The position numbers and the translations under genes are program-made. DNA of 64,000 bases. It comes from Mobula hypostoma. Lineage: Eukaryota. This document shows, in pieces, positions 4,649 to 60,290 of this stretch. The stretch lies in the NCBI RefSeq assembly GCF_963921235.1, contig NC_086097.1, positions 9,920,001 through 9,984,000 on the forward strand, written 5' to 3'. Position 1 is the first letter of the stretch. Each line of letters begins with the position of its first letter. A model generated the notes under the pieces. It was not told the origin of the DNA. It made no database searches and was given only the letters and a program-made list of their open reading frames with translations.

Positions 4649-5104
4649 TCTTTAGACAGTTCCCATTTTTTTGATTTTTTGGCATACCATTGTGCAAGTA
4701 TTAAATTACTTCTTATTTTTTCTAGTTTGAAATTTCATCCAATTCCCTTTCAAACAGAAAATTTAGGCCATGATGGAATTTATTTCTTTCCTCTTACAGG
4801 AAAATAATGGATGTGTTCAATCTTCAGCATCTCCCATTGTTGTTCTACATCAATTCCTTTCTGTCTTTCTAATCTGAGAAGGGTTCTATAGATTCTATAA
4901 AATCTACGCTTTTTTAAACATTTACAAAGACAATTCGCCTGTTGTTAGATCAATATTGCATTCTACAATAGCATGTGCTCTCAATTTGTCTTTGTTTGCC
5001 TGTCAGTAGGGCTATTTCTTATAATTCCATTTCACAATATAGATGTCCTTGGCTGGTGCTCAGTGAAGAATATAGTGATAATGTAATAAAGTCTACTGCT
5101 GACA

Positions 5105-8281: not shown

Positions 8282-8668
8282 TACACAAAATGCTGGAGAC
8301 ACAGCAGATCACAAAGCATCTGTGGAAGTGATTAAACAGTCAACATTTCAGGCTGAGAACCTTCATCAGGACTGAGGATAAAAAGGTGGGGGGAGAGGAG
8401 AAGGAGGATGGCTAGAAGGTGATAGGTGAAGCCAGGTGTATGGGAAAGGTAAAGGGATGGAGAGGAAGGAATTTGTTAGGAGAGTAGAGTGGGCTATAGG
8501 AGAAAGGGAAGGAGAAGGGGACCTGGGGAGGAGGTGATAATCAGGTGACAAGAGGTAAGAGGCCAGAGTGCAGAACAGAAGAAGAGGGAAGTAGGAGGGA
8601 TTTTTTTTACTGGCAGTAGAAACTGATATTCATGCTTCAGGTTGGAGGCTACCCAGATGGATTACAGT
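8282..8668 (-). mobile_element. Penelope-like element 3' fragment
   Basis: Reverse strand has CTGGGTAGCCTCCAACCTGA (GSLQP end of GIY-YIG ORF), a pyrimidine tract, then a hammerhead. Confidence 0.8.
8337..8374 (-). ncRNA. Minimal type I hammerhead ribozyme motif, core intact with GUU triplet
   Basis: Reverse strand: CAGTC-CTGATGA-AGGTTCTCAGCCT-GAAA-TG-TT-GACTG; stem I CAGTC/GACTG. Confidence 0.65.
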
Positions 8669-10413: not shown

Positions 10414-11013
10414 AAGCAGTGGAAGCAGTCCTTCTATTGGTCACCCACTAAAGTCTTTTAATGTCACGTCCTCTAACCCATATGCAGACAGTGATTCAAG
10501 ATTCATAATTCAAGATGATTCAAGATTGTTTAATGCCATTTCCAGTACACCACTGAAAAGGAGAATGGAAAATTGTTACTCTGGATCTGAGGCAGCACAA
10601 AAAGATAGGAGCTTATATACATAGATAGATTGTATATCCATAAAGTGTTGCTAGACACAGGAGCTTCTGTACATAAAGTGACTCTGACAGCAAGTGATAA
10701 GGTAGTGTTGGTGAGGAGTTGATCAACCTTACTAAATTTCAGCTTTCCCAATGATTACTTGGTTTTAAAATATTTTGATCTCTGGCTCCCTTGTAAAATC
10801 AAAACAACTTGTTAAGACTATTTGACAAAACTGCAATAAAAATATATTTTTTGCATTACCATACAGTTTAGAAGACTGTTCAAACTAGCAGCTTTTTTTC
10901 CAAATCATTCCTGTTCCCATCTATTGCTTTGCAATTTGTTCTCCTATGCATGCTGACTCCCCTCCAGCCTCCTTTACAGGGATTACTTTACAATAGCCAA
11001 TTAATCTATCACC

Positions 11014-11335
11014 CAGAGCAACACACACAAAATACTGGAGGAACTCAGCAGGTCAGGCAGCATCCATTCAGAATAATAAATAGTCCTGAGTCCCTTCACC
11101 AGGACTGGTAGGGAAGGGGAAGAAGTCAGAAGAAAAAATGTTGGGCAGAGGGGAATGAGTACAAATTGGCAGGTAAAAGTAAAACCACATGAGAGGGAAG
11201 GCAGGTGTCCTGATTAAGGTCTCGGACAGAAACTTCAAATGTTTATTCCACTCCATAGCCTGAGCTGCTGAGTTTCTCCAGCACTTTGTGTGTGCTTCTC
11301 GGGATTTCCAGCATTTGGAATGTCTCTTGTGTTCA
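11014..11335. mobile_element. PLE-derived element with inverted terminal arms
   Basis: Left arm ACACACAAAATACTGGAGGAACTCAGCAG is inverted as GCTGAGTTTCTCCAGCACTTTGTGTGT; decayed hammerhead remnants inside. Confidence 0.65.
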
Positions 11336-11980: not shown

Positions 11981-12405
11981 AGATCCACAAACCAGTTTGA
12001 AATTCAAAGAACAAGTTCAAAGTTCAAAATAAATTTATTATCAAAGTACATATATGTCACCATCTACTGCCTTGAGGTTCATTATTTTGCGGGCATTTAC
12101 AGAAAATGAGAAAATACAATAGCATTTTTAATGAAAAAAGCACAGTATGTAATAAAGACCGACAAACAACCAATGTGCAAAAGAAGGCAGATCATGCAAA
12201 TAAAAAAGTAAATTAATAATAAATAATATTGAGAAAACAGTACTGAGACAGGAGGATGATCTACAGAGACATCATTTACCTCTCCATCCCTTTACTTTTC
12301 CCATCATTTATCACATCAAATATGATCATAGGCACATTTGATCTGTTTATCAATAAATGAGATATATGTGTATATAGAGAGTTGGCCCTCAGAATAATAT
12401 TGGGG

Positions 12406-12932
12406 CAACACACACAAAGTGCTGGAGAAACTCAGCAGGTCAGGCAGCATCTATGAAAAAGACTAAGCAGTTGACATTTTGGGCTGAGACCCTTCATCAG
12501 GATTTCCAGCATCTGCAGATTTTCTTGTGTTTGTTAATAATTCTGGGTGACTGTGCTCTCTGCCCTCAGAAGCTGTTAGATCATCCAAGCTAACTACTTT
12601 GTCCCAGCAGAAGCGTTTGAACATTTGGAGGTGCCTTGTCAGTTACAGTGTGTTCCCATTTTAAATACATTCCATGGCCACTTTGTTGTCTACCTCCTCT
12701 ACCTAAAAATGAGGCAATTAAGTGTATCATAAGCACAAGGAAATCTGCAGATGCTGGAAATCCAAGCAACACAAAAGCTAAATGCTGGAGGAACTCAGTA
12801 GGCTAAATGGCATCTTTGAAAAAGAGTGAGCAGTCGGCATTTCGAGCCAAGACCCTTCATCAAGATTTCCAACATCTGCAGATTTTCTCATGTTTGTTAA
12901 TAATTTGGGTGACTATGCTCTCTGTCCTGAGA
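12406..12932. mobile_element. Two locally duplicated short PLE-derived elements (12406-12532, 12730-12895)
   Basis: Both carry a minus-strand degenerate hammerhead, end in GATTTCCAGCATCTGCAGATTTTCT and are followed by the same flank GTTAATAATT..GGGTGACT..GCTCTCTG. Confidence 0.7.
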
Positions 12933-12939
12933 CCATCCA

Positions 12940-14090
12940 CTTTATGGTTCAGTGCTTTGTGCATTCAGAGAAACTTTTCTGCACACCACCTCTATAACGT
13001 GTGGTTATTTGAGTTAATGTCACCTTCCTGTCAGCTGGAACAAGTGTGGCCATTCGCATCTGTCCTCTCTCATTAACAAGACATGATTGACACAGAATTG
13101 ACAATCTCTGGGTTTTTTTTTGTTTGTTTGTGCACCACTCTGTATAAACTCTAGAGCCTACTATGCATGAAAAATCCCAGGATAATCTCAGCAGTTCCCA
13201 AGATACTCAAACCACCCTGTCTGGCACCAGCAATCATTTCACGGTCAAAGTTATTTTAGAAACATAGAAACATAGAAAATAGGTGCAGGAGTAGGCCATT
13301 CGGCCCTTCAAGCCTGCACCGCCATTTATTATGATCATGGCTGATCATCCAACTCAGAACCCAGCCTTCCCTCCATACCCCCTGACCCCTGTAGCCACAA
13401 GGGCCATATCTAACTTCCTTTTAAACATAGCTAATGAACTGGCCTCAACAGTTTGCTGTGGCAGAGAATTCCACAGATTCACCACTCTCTGTGTGAAGAA
13501 GTTTTTCCTAACCTCGGTCCTAAAAGGCTTCCCCTCTATCCTCAAACTGTGTCCCCTCGTTCTAGACCTCCCCAACATCGGGAACAATCTTCCCGCATCT
13601 AGCCTGTCCAATCCCTTTAGGATCTTATACGTTTCAATCAGATCCCCCCTCAATCTTCTAAATTCCAACGAGTACAAGCCCAGTTCATCCAGTCTTTCTT
13701 CATATGAAAGACCTGCCATCCCAGGAATCAATCTGGTGAACCTTCTTTGTACTCCCTCTATGGCAAAGATGTCTTTCCTCAGATTAGGGGACCAAAACTG
13801 CACACAATACTCCAGGTGTGGTCTCACCAAGGCCTTGTACAACTGCAGTAGTACCTCCCTGCTCCTGTACTCGAATCCTCTCGCTATAAATGCCAGATCA
13901 CATTTCTTCCCTATTCTGATGTTTGATCTGAACAACAAGTGAACCTTTTGACCATGTCTGCACGCTTTCATGCATGGAGTTGATGCCACCTGATTGATTA
14001 CTGTAGATATTTGGCTGATTAGGTATTTTTAAAAAATGCATTAACGACCAGGTGTTCAGCTGTACCTAATAAAGTGGCCACTGAGTGTAT
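12940..14090 (-). mobile_element. Non-autonomous Tc1/mariner element, split by a CR1 insertion
   Basis: Same body as 5612-6103; TIR TGTACCTAATAAAGTGGCCACTGAGTG followed by TA. Confidence 0.8.
13257..13896 (-). mobile_element. Young CR1 LINE 3' fragment
   Basis: ORF 13354-13989 C-terminal CR1 domain; near-identical to 24950-25596; (CATAGAAA)n tail on + strand. Confidence 0.95.
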
Positions 14091-15290: not shown

Positions 15291-15439
15291 AATTTAAAAA
15301 TAGTAGTAGTTATTCAAGCATGCACATGAATAAAGCCAAGGTGCAATACACAGCACCAAGATCACACAGCACATAACACATATATTTAGAGTTATAATAA
15401 CAGAAAAACATCCATTCATTTGCCACCCATTTTAATTCC

Positions 15440-16065
15440 ACTTCCCATTCCCTCCAGGCTTGACAAGAAGCATAGAGACCTCAGCCTTCACCCTGCCTTG
15501 TGTGGCTGGATCCTGACTTCTTGTCAGATCGCTGGGGTGGTAAGAGTGGGCTCCCTCACCTCTGCCTCTTTGACCCTCAACACAGGAGCCTGTCAGGGCT
15601 GTGTCCTAAGCTCCTTCCCCACCCCCCGCCTTTGCTTTCTGTATAGCCATGACTGTATTGCCACCCACAGCTCTAATCTGCTAATTAAATTTGCTGACAA
15701 TACTATATTGAATGGCCTTATCTCAAATAATAACAAGGTAGCCTACAGAGAAGTCATCACCCTGACACAGTGGTTTAAAGAAAACAACCTCTCCCTCAAT
15801 GTCACAAAAACAAAGGAGTTGGTTGTGGACTACAGGAGAAATGGAGACAGGCTCACCCCTATTGACATCAATGGATCTGTGGTTGAGAGGGTGAACAGTT
15901 TTAAGTTCCTTAGCAGAAACGTCACCGAGAATCTCATGTGGTCTGTACATACCGGCTGCGTGGTGAAAAAAGCCTCTTTCACCTCACACAGTTGAAGAAG
16001 TTTGCCAAGAGTCCCCAGATCCTAAGGACTTTCTTCAGGGGCACAAATGAGAGCATCCTGACTGG
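15440..16065 (+). mobile_element. Rex1/Babar-type RT fragment
   Basis: ORF 15420-15995 NTGACQGCVLS..KFADNT..LSLNVTKTKELVVDYRR. Confidence 0.85.
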
Positions 16066-16384
16066 GAGATGCGTTTAAGAGCAGAGTTGATAGTGGAGGC
16101 TCCCCCATTTCACGTACATCTGCTCTCACTCCATCCTCCCGCCACCCCACTAGGAATAGGGTTCCCCTGGTCCTCACCTACCACCCCACCAGCCTCCGGG
16201 TCCAACACATTATTCTCCGTAACTTCCGCCACCTCCAACGGGATCCCACCACTAAGCACATCTTTCCCTCCCCCCCACCGCATTCCGCAGGGATCGCTCC
16301 CTACACAACTCCCTTGTCCATTCGTCCCCCCCCATCCCTCCCCACTGATCTCCCTCCTGGCACTTATCCATGTAAGCGGAACAA

Positions 16385-16768
16385 GTGCTACACATGCCCT
16401 TACACTTCCTCCCTTACCACCATTCAGGGCCCAAAACAGTCCTTCCAGGTGAGGCAACATGTGAGTCGGCTGGGGTGATATACTGCGTCCGGTGCTCCCG
16501 ATGTGGCCTTTATTATATTGGCGAGACCCGACGCAGACTGGGAGACCGCTTTGCTGAACACCTACGCTCTGTCCGCCAGAGAAAGCAGGATCTCCCAGTG
16601 GCCACACATTTTAATTCCACATCCCATTCCCATTCTGACATGTCTATCCATGGCCTCCTCTACTGTAAAGATGAAGCCACACTCAGGTTGGAGGAACAAC
16701 ACCTTATATTCTGTCTGGGTAGCCTCCAACCTGATGGCATGAACATCGACTTCTCTAACTTCCGCTAA
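16385..16768 (+). pseudogene. GIY-YIG endonuclease domain of the Penelope-like element (frameshifted from upstream linker; not a standalone gene)
   Basis: GVIYCVRCSRCGLYYIGETRRRLGDRFAEHLRSV..PVATHFN..EEQHLIFCLGSLQPDGMN. Confidence 0.9.
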
Positions 16769-17065
16769 TGCCCCACCTCCCCCTCGTACCCCATCTGTTA
16801 CTTATTTTTATACACACATTCTTTCTTTCACTCTCCTTTTTCTCACTCTGTCCCTCTGAATATACCCCTTGCCCATCCTCTGGGTCCTCCCCCACCACCT
16901 TGTCTTTCTTCCCAGACCTCCTGTCCCATGATCCTCTCGTATCCCCTTTTGCCCATCACCTGTCCAGCTCTTGGCTCCATCCCTCCCTCTCCTGTCTTCT
17001 CCTATCATTTTGGATCTCCCCCTCCCCCTCCAACTTTCAAATCCCTTGCTCACTCTTCCTTCAGT

Positions 17066-17103
17066 TAGTCCTGACGAAGGGTCTCGGCCTGAAACGTCGA
17101 CTG
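17066..17103 (+). ncRNA. Minimal type I hammerhead ribozyme, intact core; predicted cleavage after C17098 (GUC)
   Basis: TAGTC-CTGACGA-AGGGTCTCGGCCT-GAAA-CG-TC-GACTG: CUGANGA and GAAA boxes, stem II AGG/CCT, palindromic ACGT helix III, stem I AGTC/GACT. Confidence 0.8.
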
Positions 17104-17163
17104 TACCTCTTCCTAGAGATGCTGCCTGGCCTGCTGCGTTCACCAGCAACTTTTATGTGTGTT

Positions 17164-17650
17164 ACCTTATATTCAGTCTGGGTAGCCTCCAGCCTGATGG
17201 CATGAACATCAATTTCTCAAACTTCGGGTAATTGTTGTCCCTGCCCTCTCCTTCACCATTCCCCATCCCCTTTTCCCTCTCACATTATCTCCTTGTCTGT
17301 TCATCACCTCCCTCTGCTGCTCCTCCCCCCTTTTCTTTCATCCATGGCATTCTTTCCCCACCTATCAAACTCTTCCTTCCCCAGTCCTATATCCCTTTCA
17401 CCAATCAACTTCCCAGCTATTTACTTCATCCCTCCCCCTCCCAGTTTTGCCTATCACCTCATGTTTCTCTTCCCCCTCCCCCACCTTTTAAATCTGCACC
17501 ACATCTTTTCATTCAGTTCTGCCGAAGGGCCTAGACCCAGAACGTTGACTGTACTTTTCACCATAGATGCTGCCTGGCCTGTTGAGGCTCCTATAGCATT
17601 TTGTGGGTGTTGCTCCAGATTTCCAGCATCTGCAGATTTTCCCTTGTTTG
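17164..17650 (+). mobile_element. Second PLE 3' unit in tandem, degenerate hammerhead at 17514-17551
   Basis: Restarts at ACCTTATATTC.GTCTGGGTAGCCTCCA (repeat of 16701 onward) with a divergent UTR. Confidence 0.8.
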
Positions 17651-17749
17651 TAATATAGCGCAAGTCCCTGACTGGCATGGTGTGTAGATTGATACTGCAT
17701 GTGATATTGTCCTGGTCCAGCTTGTCTACCTTAACTGGTCAGCATGATC

Positions 17750-17820
17750 TACAGTGCAGTGCAAAAGTCTGAGGCATATACGTATATAGCTAGGGTGCAT
17801 AGACTTTTGCACGGTACTGT
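17750..17820. mobile_element. ~70 bp palindromic Tc1-like mini-MITE
   Basis: ACAGTGCAGTGCAAAAGTCT..AGACTTTTGCACGGTACTGT. Confidence 0.6.
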
Positions 17821-17876: not shown

Positions 17877-18418
17877 TAACCATACAACCATATAACAATT
17901 ACAGCATGGAAACAGGCCACCTCAGCCCTTCTAGTCCGTGCCGAACGCTTACTCTCACCTACTCCCACCAACCTGCATTTAGCCCATAACCCTCCATTCC
18001 TTTCCTGTCCATATATCTATCCAATTTAACCTTAAACGACAACATCGAACCTGCCTCAACCACTTCTGCTGGAAGCTCGTTCCACACAGCCACCACTCTC
18101 TGAGTAAAGAAGTTCCCCCTCATGTTATCCCTAAAATTTTGCCCTTTAACTCTCAGCTCATGTCCTCTTGTTTGAATCTCCCCCACTCTCAATGGAAAAA
18201 GCCTATCCACGTCAATTCTATCTATCCCCCTCATAATTTCAAATACCTCTATCAAGTCCCCCCTCAACCTTCTACGTTCCAAAGAATAAAGACCCAATTC
18301 AACCTTTCTCTGTAGCTTGGGTGATGAAACCCAGGTAACAATCTAGTAAATCTTCTCTGCACTCTCTCTATTTTGTTGACATCTTTCCTATAATTCGGTG
18401 ACCAAAACTGTACACAAT
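17877..18418 (-). mobile_element. CR1 LINE 3' fragment
   Basis: ORFs 17959-18297 and 18264-18506; same subfamily as 6101-7147. Confidence 0.9.
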
Positions 18419-20067: not shown

Positions 20068-21240
20068 CACCCAGTCCAGAATAAGTGTTCCCCTAGTGGG
20101 CTCAACCACAAGTTGCTCTAAAAAACCACCTTGTAGATGTTCTACAAAATCCCCCTCCTGGAGTCCAGCACCAACCATTCTACCTGCATATTGAAATCAC
20201 TCATGACTATTGTAACATTGCATTTTTGACATGCATGTTCTATCTCCTGTTGTAATTTGTAGGCCACATCTGTATTGCTGTTTGGACGTCTATTTGCAAC
20301 TCCAGTCAGGGTCATTTTACCCTTGCAGTTCCCTATCTCTATCCACAATGATTCAATATCTTCCAACCCTATGTCACCTCTTTCCAATTATTTGCTTTCA
20401 ATTTTTACCAGCAGAGCAACACTGTCCTCTCTGCCCTACTGCCTGTCCTTTTGATACAATGTGCATCCTTGGATATTAAGCTCCCACCTTCCCATCTTCT
20501 TTCAGCCATGATTCAGTGATACCTACAACATCATACCTGCCAATCTGTAATTGTGCTACAAGTTCATCTACCTTATTCTGCATTCCCATATAACACCTTC
20601 AGTCCCGTATTTAGCATTTTTGGTTTTCTCTGTCTTTTACATTGCAACTCATCCTATTGACTGCAATTTTGCCCCATCAGCAGCCTCTCCTCACTACGCA
20701 TTGCCTCTATTTTTAAACCAGCTACATCATCTACAGCACTATTATCTGCCTTATCTACATTACTTCTTGAATTGAAATATATGCATCTCAGGACATTAGT
20801 CGCTCCATGCTCAACCTTTTGATTCTTAACTTTGTTTGAGTTCTTACCAACATCTCTGCTTCCACAACCTCTCCACTAACTGTTATGCCACTCTGGTTCC
20901 CATCCCCCTACAACTCAAGTTTAAATCCTGCTGTCAAGCATTAACAAATCTTCCCACTAGGATATTAGTCCCCCTCCAGTTCAGGTGCAAACCGTCCCTT
21001 CTATACAAGTCCCACCTTCCCTGGAAGAGAGCCCAATGATCCAAAAATCTTATGCCCTCCTTCCTACACCAAATCCTTAGCCATATATTAAACTGTATAA
21101 TCTTCCTAGTTCTGGCCTCACTAGCACTTGGCACAGGTAGCAATCCTGAGATCACCACCCTGGAGGTTCTGCACTTTAACTTAGCATCTAACTCCCTGAG
21201 TTCCTTATGCAGAACCTCATCACTTGTCCTACCCATGTAA
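20068..21240 (-). mobile_element. CR1 LINE internal fragment: ORF1 esterase-like C-terminus and decayed APE endonuclease
   Basis: ORF 20934-21245 VVISGLLP..FLDHW..DGLHLN; ORF 20142-20387 ESLWIEI..RPNS..SDFN. Confidence 0.85.
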
Positions 21241-21987
21241 TTCAATAATATGTTTACTTTGAACTATCAACTTCCAACTTTTAAAGTCATGTGCGTTGCT
21301 AAGCTAATTGTTAGGTTAATTGTTCTTCATCTTCAGTTGAGTGGCTTGGAATAGGTTGGAGAGAAAATTAACGGGTGAAATGAAATTGCTGTGTTAGCAA
21401 TGATGGGTGATGGACCAAATGACTTCCTTTGATGGAAGTATTGGTTTATATACAAAGCTTTCACACATCATCTTTGTCTTTTGTCCAGTTTTAAATGGGT
21501 TAACTGTCCAATGAGGAGTGGAAAAAGAGGAAGAAATGATTCATTGTTTCTGTATGAGTGGCATCTATTTTATTCGCATTGTGATATTAACTTTCAAGAC
21601 ACATCATGAGATTTAAAAAATAAATTTATGCAGAACATTTGTTTAAAATTCTGCCACATTTTATTAATGTGAACATTATCATTAGGTTTACAGAAGAAAT
21701 CCGTGTATCTCCAGCTGGGTGCCTGGGTCCACAGCATTCAAAAAAACATGTTCAATTTTCCAATTTGTCACCTGTGCTATATTTTTGTCAAGCACTCCCT
21801 GTGCCACCTGTTCCAATGCAAGTCTAATTTAATTTCTGTGAGTGGATATGCACATGCAATGGTAAATTATATACTGAATCTGATCATTTGGTCTGCAGAT
21901 AGACTCACTAAGGTGGCACAGATTTGTCCTCATATACAAAGGCCTTAACAGCAAAATATTAGGCAGTTATAAGAGCAATAGTGGGCA

Positions 21988-22594
21988 AATATAAGAGCAA
22001 AGAGGTCCTTCTGCAGTTGTACAGGGCCCTGGTGAGACCACACCTGGAATACTGTGTGCAGTTTTGGTCTCCAAATTTGAGGAAGGACATTCTTGCTATT
22101 GAGGGAGTGCAGCGTAGGTTCACAAGGTTAATCCCCGGGATGGCAGGACTGTCATATGTTGAAAGACTGGAGCGACTGGGCTTGTATACTCTGGAATTTA
22201 GAAGGCTGAGAGGGGATCTTATTGAAACATTTAAGATTATTAAGGGACTGGACATGCTGGAGGCAGGAAGCATGTTCCCGCTGATGGGTGAGTCCAGAAC
22301 CAGAGGCCACAGTTTAAGAATAAGGGGTAGGCCATTTAGAAAGGAGCTGAGCAAAAACTTTTTCACCCAGAGAGTGGTGGATATATGGAATGCTCTACCC
22401 CAGAAGGCTGTGGAGGCCAAGTCTCTGGATGCTTTCAAGAAAGAGATGGATAGAGCTCTTAAAGATAGCGGAATCAAAGATTATGGGGATAAGGCAGGAA
22501 CTGGATACTGATTGTGTATGATCAGCCATGATCACAGTGAATGGCGGTGCTGGCTTTAAGGGCCGAATGGCATACTCCTGCACCTATTGTCTAT
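21988..22594 (+). mobile_element. CR1 LINE 3' fragment
   Basis: ORF 21981-22511 LYRALVRPHLEYCVQFWSP..; (CTATTGT)n tail. Confidence 0.95.
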
Positions 22595-32440: not shown

Positions 32441-34029
32441 TATACCCAGGATGAACTATTAAATATGAGATGGTAAAACTTTAGGGTGTGAAAGACAAAG
32501 ATTACAGAGAATAATGTGCAGCTTTTTTTTGCACAGGAAGTTGTAGGTGTCTGTAACACACTGCTGGGGTAGGTGGTAGAGGTGGATACAAGAGTAATGT
32601 TTAGGAGCTGTTTAGGCTGACAAAACAATTCTTAATGTAATTTTCAGCTTCTATTATTATGTATTACAATGTGAGGTGCATGGGATGTCCAGGGAGGGGT
32701 AGCACCTCTGGTGAAAGGCTTCTGGTGTCCATTCTGGGGTAGCGCACTCACCTTTGGTCCTCAACAGGCGCTCAATTCTCACCTGTGTCTCCATGTCGCT
32801 GTTTGCATGCGATAGCAGCTGCAACCTGGTACAGCACTTCAACAGGCTGCTAAACCAGGTGAACGTGGCCAGTAGGTCTCACACCCTGGTGAGACAGGGA
32901 CATGCCAGTCCTAGTGAGTAAAGTTAGCCCTGGGGATGAGACCAGTGGCTAGGAAGGTGGTTCTGCAATTCTCTGTGGAGCATGAAGGGCATGACAAGGC
33001 AGAGAAGATGTCATGGGGATTCACTGTAACCAAGGAAGACCCCAGTTTATGATACTTGTCTGTATAACTGGACCTGGGCTTCTGAGGTCAAGAGATTGCA
33101 ACCACCACTGTGCAATGGGTTTTCCCACTTTAAAAGCTCTCCTGCACAGGTTTTCTGTAATTGTTGGACATGATGGAAAACCACCATTGCTGCTACATAA
33201 CAACATATGCCAGTGATATTAAACCTGATTCTGATTCAGATAATAATCCTCTGGGGGATTAAGTTAGCCATGACTATATTCTATTGAGTTTAGAAGAATG
33301 AATAAGGGTTCTGTCAAAATACATACACTTCTTAAGAAACCGGCAGGATAGATGAAAAAGAACATGCGGTCAAGAATCAGAGGTTACAGACTCAAAACAA
33401 GGAGTTAGCCATTAAGGACACAGGTGAGAAGAGATTTCTTCACCCAGAGGCTGGTCCATCTTTGCCTGAGGGGATTGTGGAGGCAGAGTCATTGACAATG
33501 TTCACTATAGGGACACACTGATGTTCAAATTATGTGTTAATATTGATAGAATCTAATATTGATGGGACAGGATATTGGTGCACGGCTAAAAGGTCATATA
33601 TGATCTTATTCAATGCTTAACAGTGAATAAGGATTGAATGCCTTACTAATGTATCTTTTTTAAAATACTCTTACGTTCTTTGCTTTTGAATATGGGTGTT
33701 CAAGTTTCAAGATTCATTGTCATTCCTCAGTATATAAGTGCAAAGGAGAGTAAAGTACTTGTTAATCCAGATCTGTTGCACCACAGAAAAATATACAATA
33801 AAGAGAAGGAACATGATAAAAAAACACAATAAATATAAATACATAAGATTCGCTTATATACTTAGCTGGACAGTATATACATAAAGTTATACTAGGCATA
33901 GGAGTGTCTGTGCATAAAATGACTCTGACAGGAAATGATAAAGTAGTGGTGGAGTGGGTTTGTGGGTAAAGATGTTGAGCAGCCCGAGGGGAAGTAACTT
34001 GCTGACAAAGCCAACATCTTTATTCTGTA

Positions 34030-34249
34030 AACACGAGGAAACCAGCAGATGCTGGAAATTCAAGCAACACATACAAAAAATGCTGGTGAACGCAGCAGGC
34101 CAGGCAGCATCTATGGGAAGAGGTACAGTCGACGTTTTGGGCCGGGCTCTTCATCAGGACTCCTGACAAAAGGTCCTGGCCTGAAACGTCGGCTGTACCT
34201 CTTCCTATAGATGCTGCCTGGTCTGCTGCATTCACCAGTATTTTTTGGG
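34030..34249. mobile_element. Palindromic PLE-derived element with two inverted hammerhead motifs
   Basis: 34072-34160 is an imperfect reverse complement of 34160-34249. Confidence 0.8.
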
Positions 34250-59198: not shown

Positions 59199-60290
59199 TG
59201 TATGACGTACTTCCAACTAAAAGAATTCCAAATCAAAAGCAATTTGTTTAATCAACACACACACAATGCTGGATGAACTCAGTAGGTTAGGCAGCATCTA
59301 TGAGAAAGATTACAGTCAATATTTTGGGCCGAGAACCCTCATCAGGATCTGATGAAAGCTCTTGGCCTGAAATGTTGACTGTACTCTTTTCCATAGATGC
59401 TCTCTGGCCTGCTGAGATCCCAGCACTGTGTGTCCATTGATTGCTAACTCTGCTAACAGCCACGTGACTCAGTAGTGAGAAGGCAACCTTTCATAAGCAA
59501 TACACGATTAGGATTGGTATGATTTGGTTTCAACCAAACAAGAAAGTCAGGATGTTCTGATCAAGGAACATTGATTCGGTGAATGCTGTGTAAATACTGC
59601 CCCATACACAATTATCAATTGCTAAGAAATGACAGATTGTACACCAGCATAAAATTATAAAGAGAGTCTATTTAGTAATTTTCAACTTTATCAAGCAGTT
59701 AACAGGAAAAGAATAGAAAAATAAAAGGGTCCATTACAGTTAAGCCAGTCTCGTGTGCACATAAACATTGGAGCTCATTTCTGGGGCAGTCCAGTGTATC
59801 AATGCACTCATGCTCTGAACCCATGATCTGCATGAAAGACACCAGTCACAGTTTGAAATTCCCTCGAAGACCATTTTGTATGAACTGGTTTGCTCAGGAG
59901 TATTGGCACTTCCCCCTTAGATTCATTCGTCTGCCCTAAGTACTTCATACAACGAGGTCTCTCCTTCGAGCAGCATTCTGCATCTTCCCCTGTGCCCCAC
60001 TCCACAGCTCCCACCAAGAGACCCCAAATCAGACTACTGTCCTTCAGAAAACTAATCCTGCCCAGCCCTCTCGAATGTTCCATGTCATCCCACTGGGCAG
60101 AAAGTTACAACATGTATCAAGACAACTCGGATATGCTGACACAACATTCCTAAGTTCGACAACATGGCTCCTTATCTTTAGCCGAAGCCAAAGGATTCTT
60201 ACGAGCAGGACACACTGTCTTTGCAGAAAACTGATAAAATAAAAACATCTAGCAGCATAGCAGTCGGAATCTTAACCAAGGCATCAAACA
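59199..60290 (-). mobile_element. Solo-LTR-like element, family A copy 4, inserted in the Gypsy RT
   Basis: Reverse strand starts TGTTTGATGCCTTGGTTAAGATTCCGACTGCTATGCTG, matching 671 onward; shares ATGAGCTCCAATG..GTGCACA. Confidence 0.65.
59253..59433. mobile_element. Palindromic PLE-derived element with two inverted hammerhead motifs
   Basis: Centre CTCATCAGGATCTGATGA; the arms are imperfect reverse complements. Confidence 0.8.

Follow-up and report, generated by a model that had tools for sequence, protein, structure and literature searches.

An intact minimal hammerhead motif carried by a dead Penelope-like element in the genome of the ray Mobula hypostoma

Does an intact hammerhead motif on a dead retroelement still act as a ribozyme, or is it a passive copy of what its family encodes? 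This question was raised by 38 nucleotides at 17066-17103 (+) of a 64,000-nucleotide stretch of Mobula hypostoma DNA (the window). The motif reads TAGTC-CTGACGA-A-GGGT-CTCG-GCCT-GAAA-CG-TC-GACTG, and it was analyzed by descriptor search, folding, alignment and copy comparison. It was observed that the core elements CUGANGA, GAAA and UH were all present, with C3-A9 at 17071-17077 (+) and G12-A15.1 at 17091-17094 (+), so the preliminary description was right to claim every core nucleotide. Stem I (17066-17070/17099-17103, +), for which 4-5 bp had been claimed, comprised 5 bp, including a U·G at one terminus, and belongs to the 4-5 bp class. Helix III was not intramolecular; in its place stood the palindrome ACGT (17094-17097, +; U16.1 at 17097), again as described, with 15.1-16.1 palindromic. 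The GUC triplet at 17096-17098 (+) put C17 at 17098, and the predicted cut would fall after C17098. Stem II was present in a register other than the one first proposed. The 3-bp pairing AGG/CCT had a pair probability of 0.02 in the 38-mer, whereas a 4-bp stem GGGU/GCCU (17079-17082/17087-17090, +) with the loop CUCG, preceded by an unpaired A17078 between A9 and 10.1, had a probability of 0.97; both the fold and the alignment placed this unpaired base, and the 4-bp register is the one kept across the hammerhead alignment. This register leaves a G·U at 10.1-11.1, a position that is G-C in 17 of 22 aligned rows and G·U in four, the focal copy included; an effect of this pair on rate was not found in the available sections of PMC2837043, PMC11300833, PMC6155905 and PMC2377424. 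Judged from its letters, the 38-base stretch is a real, intact copy of the PLE (Penelope-like element) minimal hammerhead.

The carrier of the motif, copy A (16066-17163, +), was identified by tblastn with ray PLE proteins and by profile search as a 5'-truncated, dead element of the Neptune type. Its first ~35 bp (16066-16100, -) are a 5' inversion of the coding segment that, in the intact protein, comes just ahead of the part starting at 16101 (residues 135-146 of P0001). The 3' end of the ORF (16101-16768, +) follows, with the post-RT region, a C-x4-C-x2-C linker and the GIY-YIG endonuclease; it has at least two frameshifts, lacks the RT core and ends at a stop codon at 16766-16768. The GIY-YIG frame matched Pfam PF01541 above the cut-off (E 3.3e-5) and contained two cysteines between GIY and YIG. 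Among 32 protein matches of the endonuclease piece, the best were from Mobula hypostoma (95%) and Hypanus sabinus (88%), followed by shark, skate, coral and unnamed proteins. The homologues had an RT-like region upstream, then the linker and GIY-YIG, with RVT_1 below cut-off in three of the five homologues scanned. The linker and the GIY-YIG cysteines fit the definition of a Neptune- or Nematis-type PLE given in PMC8557442. Downstream of the ORF lies the pyrimidine-rich untranslated part of the pseudo-LTR (16769-17065, +). The hammerhead sits in this pseudo-LTR, 298 nt 3' of the stop codon, in agreement with the roughly 300 nt given before. The conserved stretch past it (17104-17163, +) ends at the first, UG-rich, of two family 3' end points; loose 3' ends of aligned contigs pile up at 17163, and copy A lacks the optional 35-40 bp tail of the family.

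A chance resemblance to a hammerhead would be consistent with two of the results. The Rfam search proposed at the outset returned no hammerhead family, either for the window at the gathering score or for 16700-17800 at E up to 10, and the folding energy of the motif was ordinary (z -1.24). The silence of Rfam on a real motif presumably reflects the missing helix III; its one minus-strand PrrB_RsmZ match (15.7 bits, E 0.51) was dismissed as chance. Against a chance origin, the minimal-form descriptor found nothing when the window was shuffled 200 times (block-wise dinucleotide shuffles). With a looser descriptor, 11 of 200 shuffles gave a match, and the real window also gave a second family copy at 8374 (-); two overlapping long-loop matches near 4831 were treated as chance. 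The decisive evidence came from other lineages, where homologous endonucleases are followed by the same fold with compensatory stems. This cross-lineage conservation refutes the chance reading, whose probability we consider negligible.

The conservation was assessed in loci retrieved with 25 of the 32 homologues, namely 42 metagenome loci and one genome-collection locus. In 15 of these 43 loci, which belong to elements of an invertebrate type, the minimal architecture recurred on the sense strand 3' of the protein match, against a shuffle mean of 0.21; in 12 of the 15 the motif lay 97-138 nt past that match. The other 28 loci, some with too little flank, yielded no motif. An alignment of 22 rows (12 window copies and 10 related loci) was used for stem covariation. 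All nine stem pairs were altered on both sides, and 82% of cells were paired, compared with 26-53% for slid-partner controls; since the rows form about four related groups, this covariation represents few independent events. The expected covariation was therefore borne out at the level of the lineage and not at this locus, while the placement of a minimal type I hammerhead at a PLE 3' end gained support from a position and fold kept in distant relatives. One related locus carried an additional inverted hammerhead copy. In an invertebrate-type relative (L002, 250-345 and 2730-2850), an inverted pseudo-LTR copy is joined to a 5'-truncated ORF. The hammerhead pattern had no match in the viral and metagenome contigs searched, and the protein alignment search gave no confirmed viral locus. 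In the genome collection, a contig of 578 bp assigned to a bacterial MAG (L043, 537-576) contained a PLE endonuclease and a minimal hammerhead, and is probably host DNA contaminating the bin.

A profile search of the 64-kb window gave 21 matches to the family, 19 of them with a hammerhead. The invariant core was kept in four of the 19, and the core together with ACGT and both stems only in the focal copy; two rows one base out of register were broken in either register. A copy at 11084-11102 (-) has an internal deletion of the second core half and the palindrome. In the 13 gap-free copies, non-CpG core positions were changed in 12/130 cases and non-core positions in 25/195 (P 0.37), and CpG positions changed fastest (36/104). 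The core thus decays like its surroundings, indicating neutral decay after insertion; purifying selection on inserted copies was not seen among these 13. At positions 11.1/12, the 19 copies read TG (7), CA (5), CG (4) or other (3), and from this pattern the focal U11.1 is probably a product of CpG decay. It may instead be a subfamily state, T having the most aligned depth at 11.1 and C being found in 26-41%. The focal copy is most likely intact because it is young, rather than because it was selected at this locus. Its youth is a rough estimate from about 16 positions, among those listed over 801 nt, at which the majority depth differs. As for abundance, 211,925 contig records of one DNA run aligned to 16400-17200, a figure that is not a copy number, and aligned contig depth peaked over the hammerhead and tail. 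The depth of runs X11 and X16 was rejected as evidence of expression, their RNA status being only guessed. No site rich in molecule ends stood among the positions listed for the aligned runs.

The only same-strand neighbour of the focal hammerhead within 1 kb is copy B (17164-17649, +), an older, 5'-truncated family member that adjoins copy A and is 67% identical to it. Copy B has the optional tail, and its hammerhead (17514-17551, +), 448 nt downstream of the focal motif, keeps ACGT in a core broken by changes at A6, G12 and A13. At 67% identity, the reading of A and B as a tandem of one element was rejected. At 17163/17164, the young copy A ends where the old copy B starts, inside the endonuclease end of B and beside ATT; by analogy with the proposal for the anole element, copy A may have inserted into an older relative. 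A 31-bp GIY-YIG coding piece at 15422-15452, 94% identical to 16601-16631, may represent the left part of copy B, which later insertions would have split from the rest. A LINE-type reverse transcriptase fragment (15390-16065; RVT_1, E 2e-4, below cut-off) is split by copy A. Its last nine nucleotides (16057-16065) are found again near 17667, a repeat not shown to be a target-site duplication, and a shared duplication flanking A plus B was sought and not established. Frames resembling LINE pieces also lie at 13354-14028, 17959-18342, 21963-22511 and 20934-21263. Window frames of this kind were presumed to be CR1-type LINE ORF2 ends, and Pfam gave no support for the two scanned. Among the LINE-like frames is also an ORF1 piece of esterase type, whose GDSL-like match (E 1.5e-6) fell short of the cut-off.

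The preliminary description had further stated that the palindromic helix III of PLE hammerheads forms in dimers, and the same design is reported in the available text of PMC4209133. In such a double hammerhead, A15.1 of one unit would pair with U16.1 of the other, so that cutting would be crosswise and cleavage at C17098 would require the intact core of the partner. We calculated the folds with nearest-neighbour models, which exclude Mg2+, tertiary contacts and protein. The 38-mer alone preferred an inactive fold in which GACG paired with CGUC (probability 0.98), and the double hammerhead, at -11.5 kcal/mol against -22.0 kcal/mol for two monomers, was about 10 kcal/mol worse. Self-cleavage of the focal copy in cis at C17098 is improbable. 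The proposed self-cleavage after C17098 with a second copy was likewise unsupported at this locus, where the core of B is broken and the inactive fold is favoured.

It is nevertheless conceivable that the focal copy is a working ribozyme in vivo, being transcribed, paired in trans or folded by protein, and cut after C17098, or that it cuts copy B after U17546 in cis. It is the one copy of 19 that retains core, palindrome and both stems, its family is very abundant, and folding an A-to-B transcript gave pairing between stem I of A and the 3' arm of B (probability 0.94). In addition, an anole PLE hammerhead was cleaved with the help of protein (PMC11167929). However, the probability of an A-B helix III was 0.0 in the same fold, and inactive mispairing dominated the 38-mer. 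In the available parts of the literature, the monomer was inactive and dimers and trimers had low activity (PMC4209133), one of nine Xenopus dimers was cleaved (preprint 10.64898/2026.07.22.740005), and no RNA-seq reads ended at the site in the anole work (PMC11167929). We therefore regard a working focal ribozyme as unlikely. Very probably, a highly abundant ray PLE family of the Neptune type encodes this minimal hammerhead, which was passively copied into a dead insertion. In the active parent, two hammerheads in one tandem transcript would join by ACGU pairing, each weakly cutting the other after GUC; alternatively, a single hammerhead would be assisted by the element protein. Reverse transcription would have two alternative start sites, roughly 65 and 100 nt past the hammerhead, and would run through the uncut motif, so that the copies retain both sides of the cut site. 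Of the 20 tail units, 9 had the short 3' end and 11 the long one, and no unit started at the cut site, which matches the internal initiation and uncut template described for the anole element in the accessible text of PMC11167929.

The 5' ends of the copies lie elsewhere in the motif. For 9 of the 19 copies, the start lay within the 5' arm of stem I, 0-4 nt ahead of C3 (C3 at 4261(-), 11210(+), 12500(-), 12863(-), 34157(-), 34163(+), 55069(-), 59345(-) and 59349(+)). Counted as independent loci, six of 17 5' ends start at stem I, with a binomial P of 2e-6 to 1e-4 after correction for window choice. The upstream flanks of the nine short copies were not pyrimidine-rich (0.23-0.54 vs 0.74-0.91), and the copies included head-to-head pairs and inverted-tail junctions. 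The short hammerhead-plus-tail copies at 34028-34249 form a head-to-head pair joined at the stem I 5' arm; a pair of a different subfamily, at 59252-59445, is centred on the stem I arm, and an asymmetric head-to-head inverted pair lies at 11013-11334. At 12402-12539 and 12730-12902, an inverted optional tail is fused to the hammerhead through a 3-nt microhomology; these two units have ~25 nt of flanking sequence in common and may have arisen by local duplication.

This pile-up could indicate that transcripts of the element have their 5' end at the hammerhead, with an initiator-like start at the A of the stem I 5' arm (17067). Reverse transcription from the tail nearest the 5' end of the RNA would then run off the template and give strong-stop-like insertions of 100-140 bp as well as head-to-head pairs. 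Besides the starts at stem I (9 of 19 copies, or 6 of 17 independent 5' ends), loose 5' ends were found at 17067/17068 in 483 and 32 contigs, with agreement of 0.38 and 0.35, and three joints among those listed landed there. The motif YYANWYY, which we take to be an initiator-like consensus, occurred at the stem I site in all six long copies, and a non-family G preceded the A in two window copies and one joint. However, YYANWYY also occurred 4-12 times per untranslated region, several junctions showed microhomology, and the lone inverted copy of the invertebrate-type locus broke ~50 nt upstream of stem I. In one run, the loose ends had as their consensus the pyrimidine tract found in older subfamilies, and divergence thus inflated the pile at 17067/17068. 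Moreover, in Drosophila virilis an intron with its end at helix I lies downstream of the transcript start (PMC2377424, PMC4209133), and stalling at the pyrimidine tract or cDNA fold-back could produce the same pile. A transcript start at the hammerhead would supplement and not replace passive copying as the best explanation; it is the account of the stem I pile-up that we prefer, tentatively and with more doubt than confidence. A slightly more doubtful proposal is that transcription starts at the first base of a 4-bp stem I, with the ribozyme at the capped 5' end and the insertions recording the start. If true, the cut would strip the cap and ~32 nt and serve as a switch between messenger and template, and strong-stop-like cDNAs, in some cases bearing a G derived from the cap, would account for the 100-140 bp insertions and the head-to-head palindromes.

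Alternatively, the pyrimidine-rich region might be a spliceosomal intron with its acceptor in stem I, the arrangement known from Drosophila virilis Penelope, in which case spliced and unspliced RNAs would differ in their stem I arms. A YAG stood at -5 from C3 in five of six long copies, and GTAA spanned the stop codon in six of seven aligned copies. However, the focal copy lacks that GT, and the last codon alone can yield a G followed by TAA. Each copy also had two to four further YAG upstream, no fitting GT..AG joint was present among the 15 of 445 joints listed, and the short copies had no common upstream exon. These results make an intron improbable.

The window copies start at the 5' edge of the hammerhead rather than at the cut site; if this holds genome-wide, it would fix the start of the copied RNA and argue that cut RNA is rarely the template. 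The role of PLE hammerheads is described as unclear in PMC8557442, and the abundance of this family makes that role testable by counting copies. A pile-up of breakpoints at the hammerhead was not found in the literature searched, most subscription papers being outside its reach, nor is it mentioned for Neptune/Nematis in the accessible sections of PMC8557442. The same literature held no report of this ray PLE family, with the supplementary tables of the retrozyme preprint outside that search.

The comparisons that follow draw on the available parts of the cited sources. Minimal hammerheads (min-HHRs) are carried by metazoan PLE pseudo-LTRs (Cervera and De la Pena 2014, PMC4209133), and show no cleavage as monomers and low cleavage as dimers or trimers. 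Neptune elements from fishes are among their reported carriers, and the supplement text searched names no shark or ray. The ray motif resembles them in being type I, with a 4-5 bp stem I, an unpaired base at 9/10.1 and a palindromic 15.2-16.2, and its copies, like theirs, are mostly single on truncated elements, with some opposite-strand pairs. It differs in its 4-bp stem II, compared with 7-8 bp in the Schistosoma families, and the focal copy has G·U where the class has a highly conserved G10.1-C11.1. In PAc, a Poseidon element of Anolis carolinensis, hammerhead cleavage requires the element protein and is dispensable for insertion in vitro, and two internal reverse-transcription starts define an optional tail (Frangieh et al. 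2024, PMC11167929). In the ray family, likewise, the hammerhead precedes two 3' end points spaced 30-40 nt apart, with an optional tail; the template would be uncut RNA, and the target is AT-rich and near the family's own ORF end. PAc, of the Poseidon clade, lacks the linker zinc-finger motif that the ray family has, and its ORF starts inside stem II, whereas the ORF start of the ray family lies outside the window. As in Neptune/Nematis (Craig et al. 2021, PMC8557442), the C-terminal GIY-YIG has two cysteines and the linker is of the CX2-5CxxC form, accompanied by 5' truncation, partial tandems, inverted 5' copies, an optional tail and a 3' hammerhead. Non-LTR retrozymes, present in the only chondrichthyan sampled, also carry type I hammerheads from PLE pseudo-LTRs (preprint 10.64898/2026.07.22.740005). 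By definition, they comprise two or more tandem units in succession, each with its motifs complete, whereas A and B are separate insertions, 67% identical, with B broken. Collectively, the motif is an ordinary member of a class first described in 2014, to which it adds a ray family while leaving the class unchanged.
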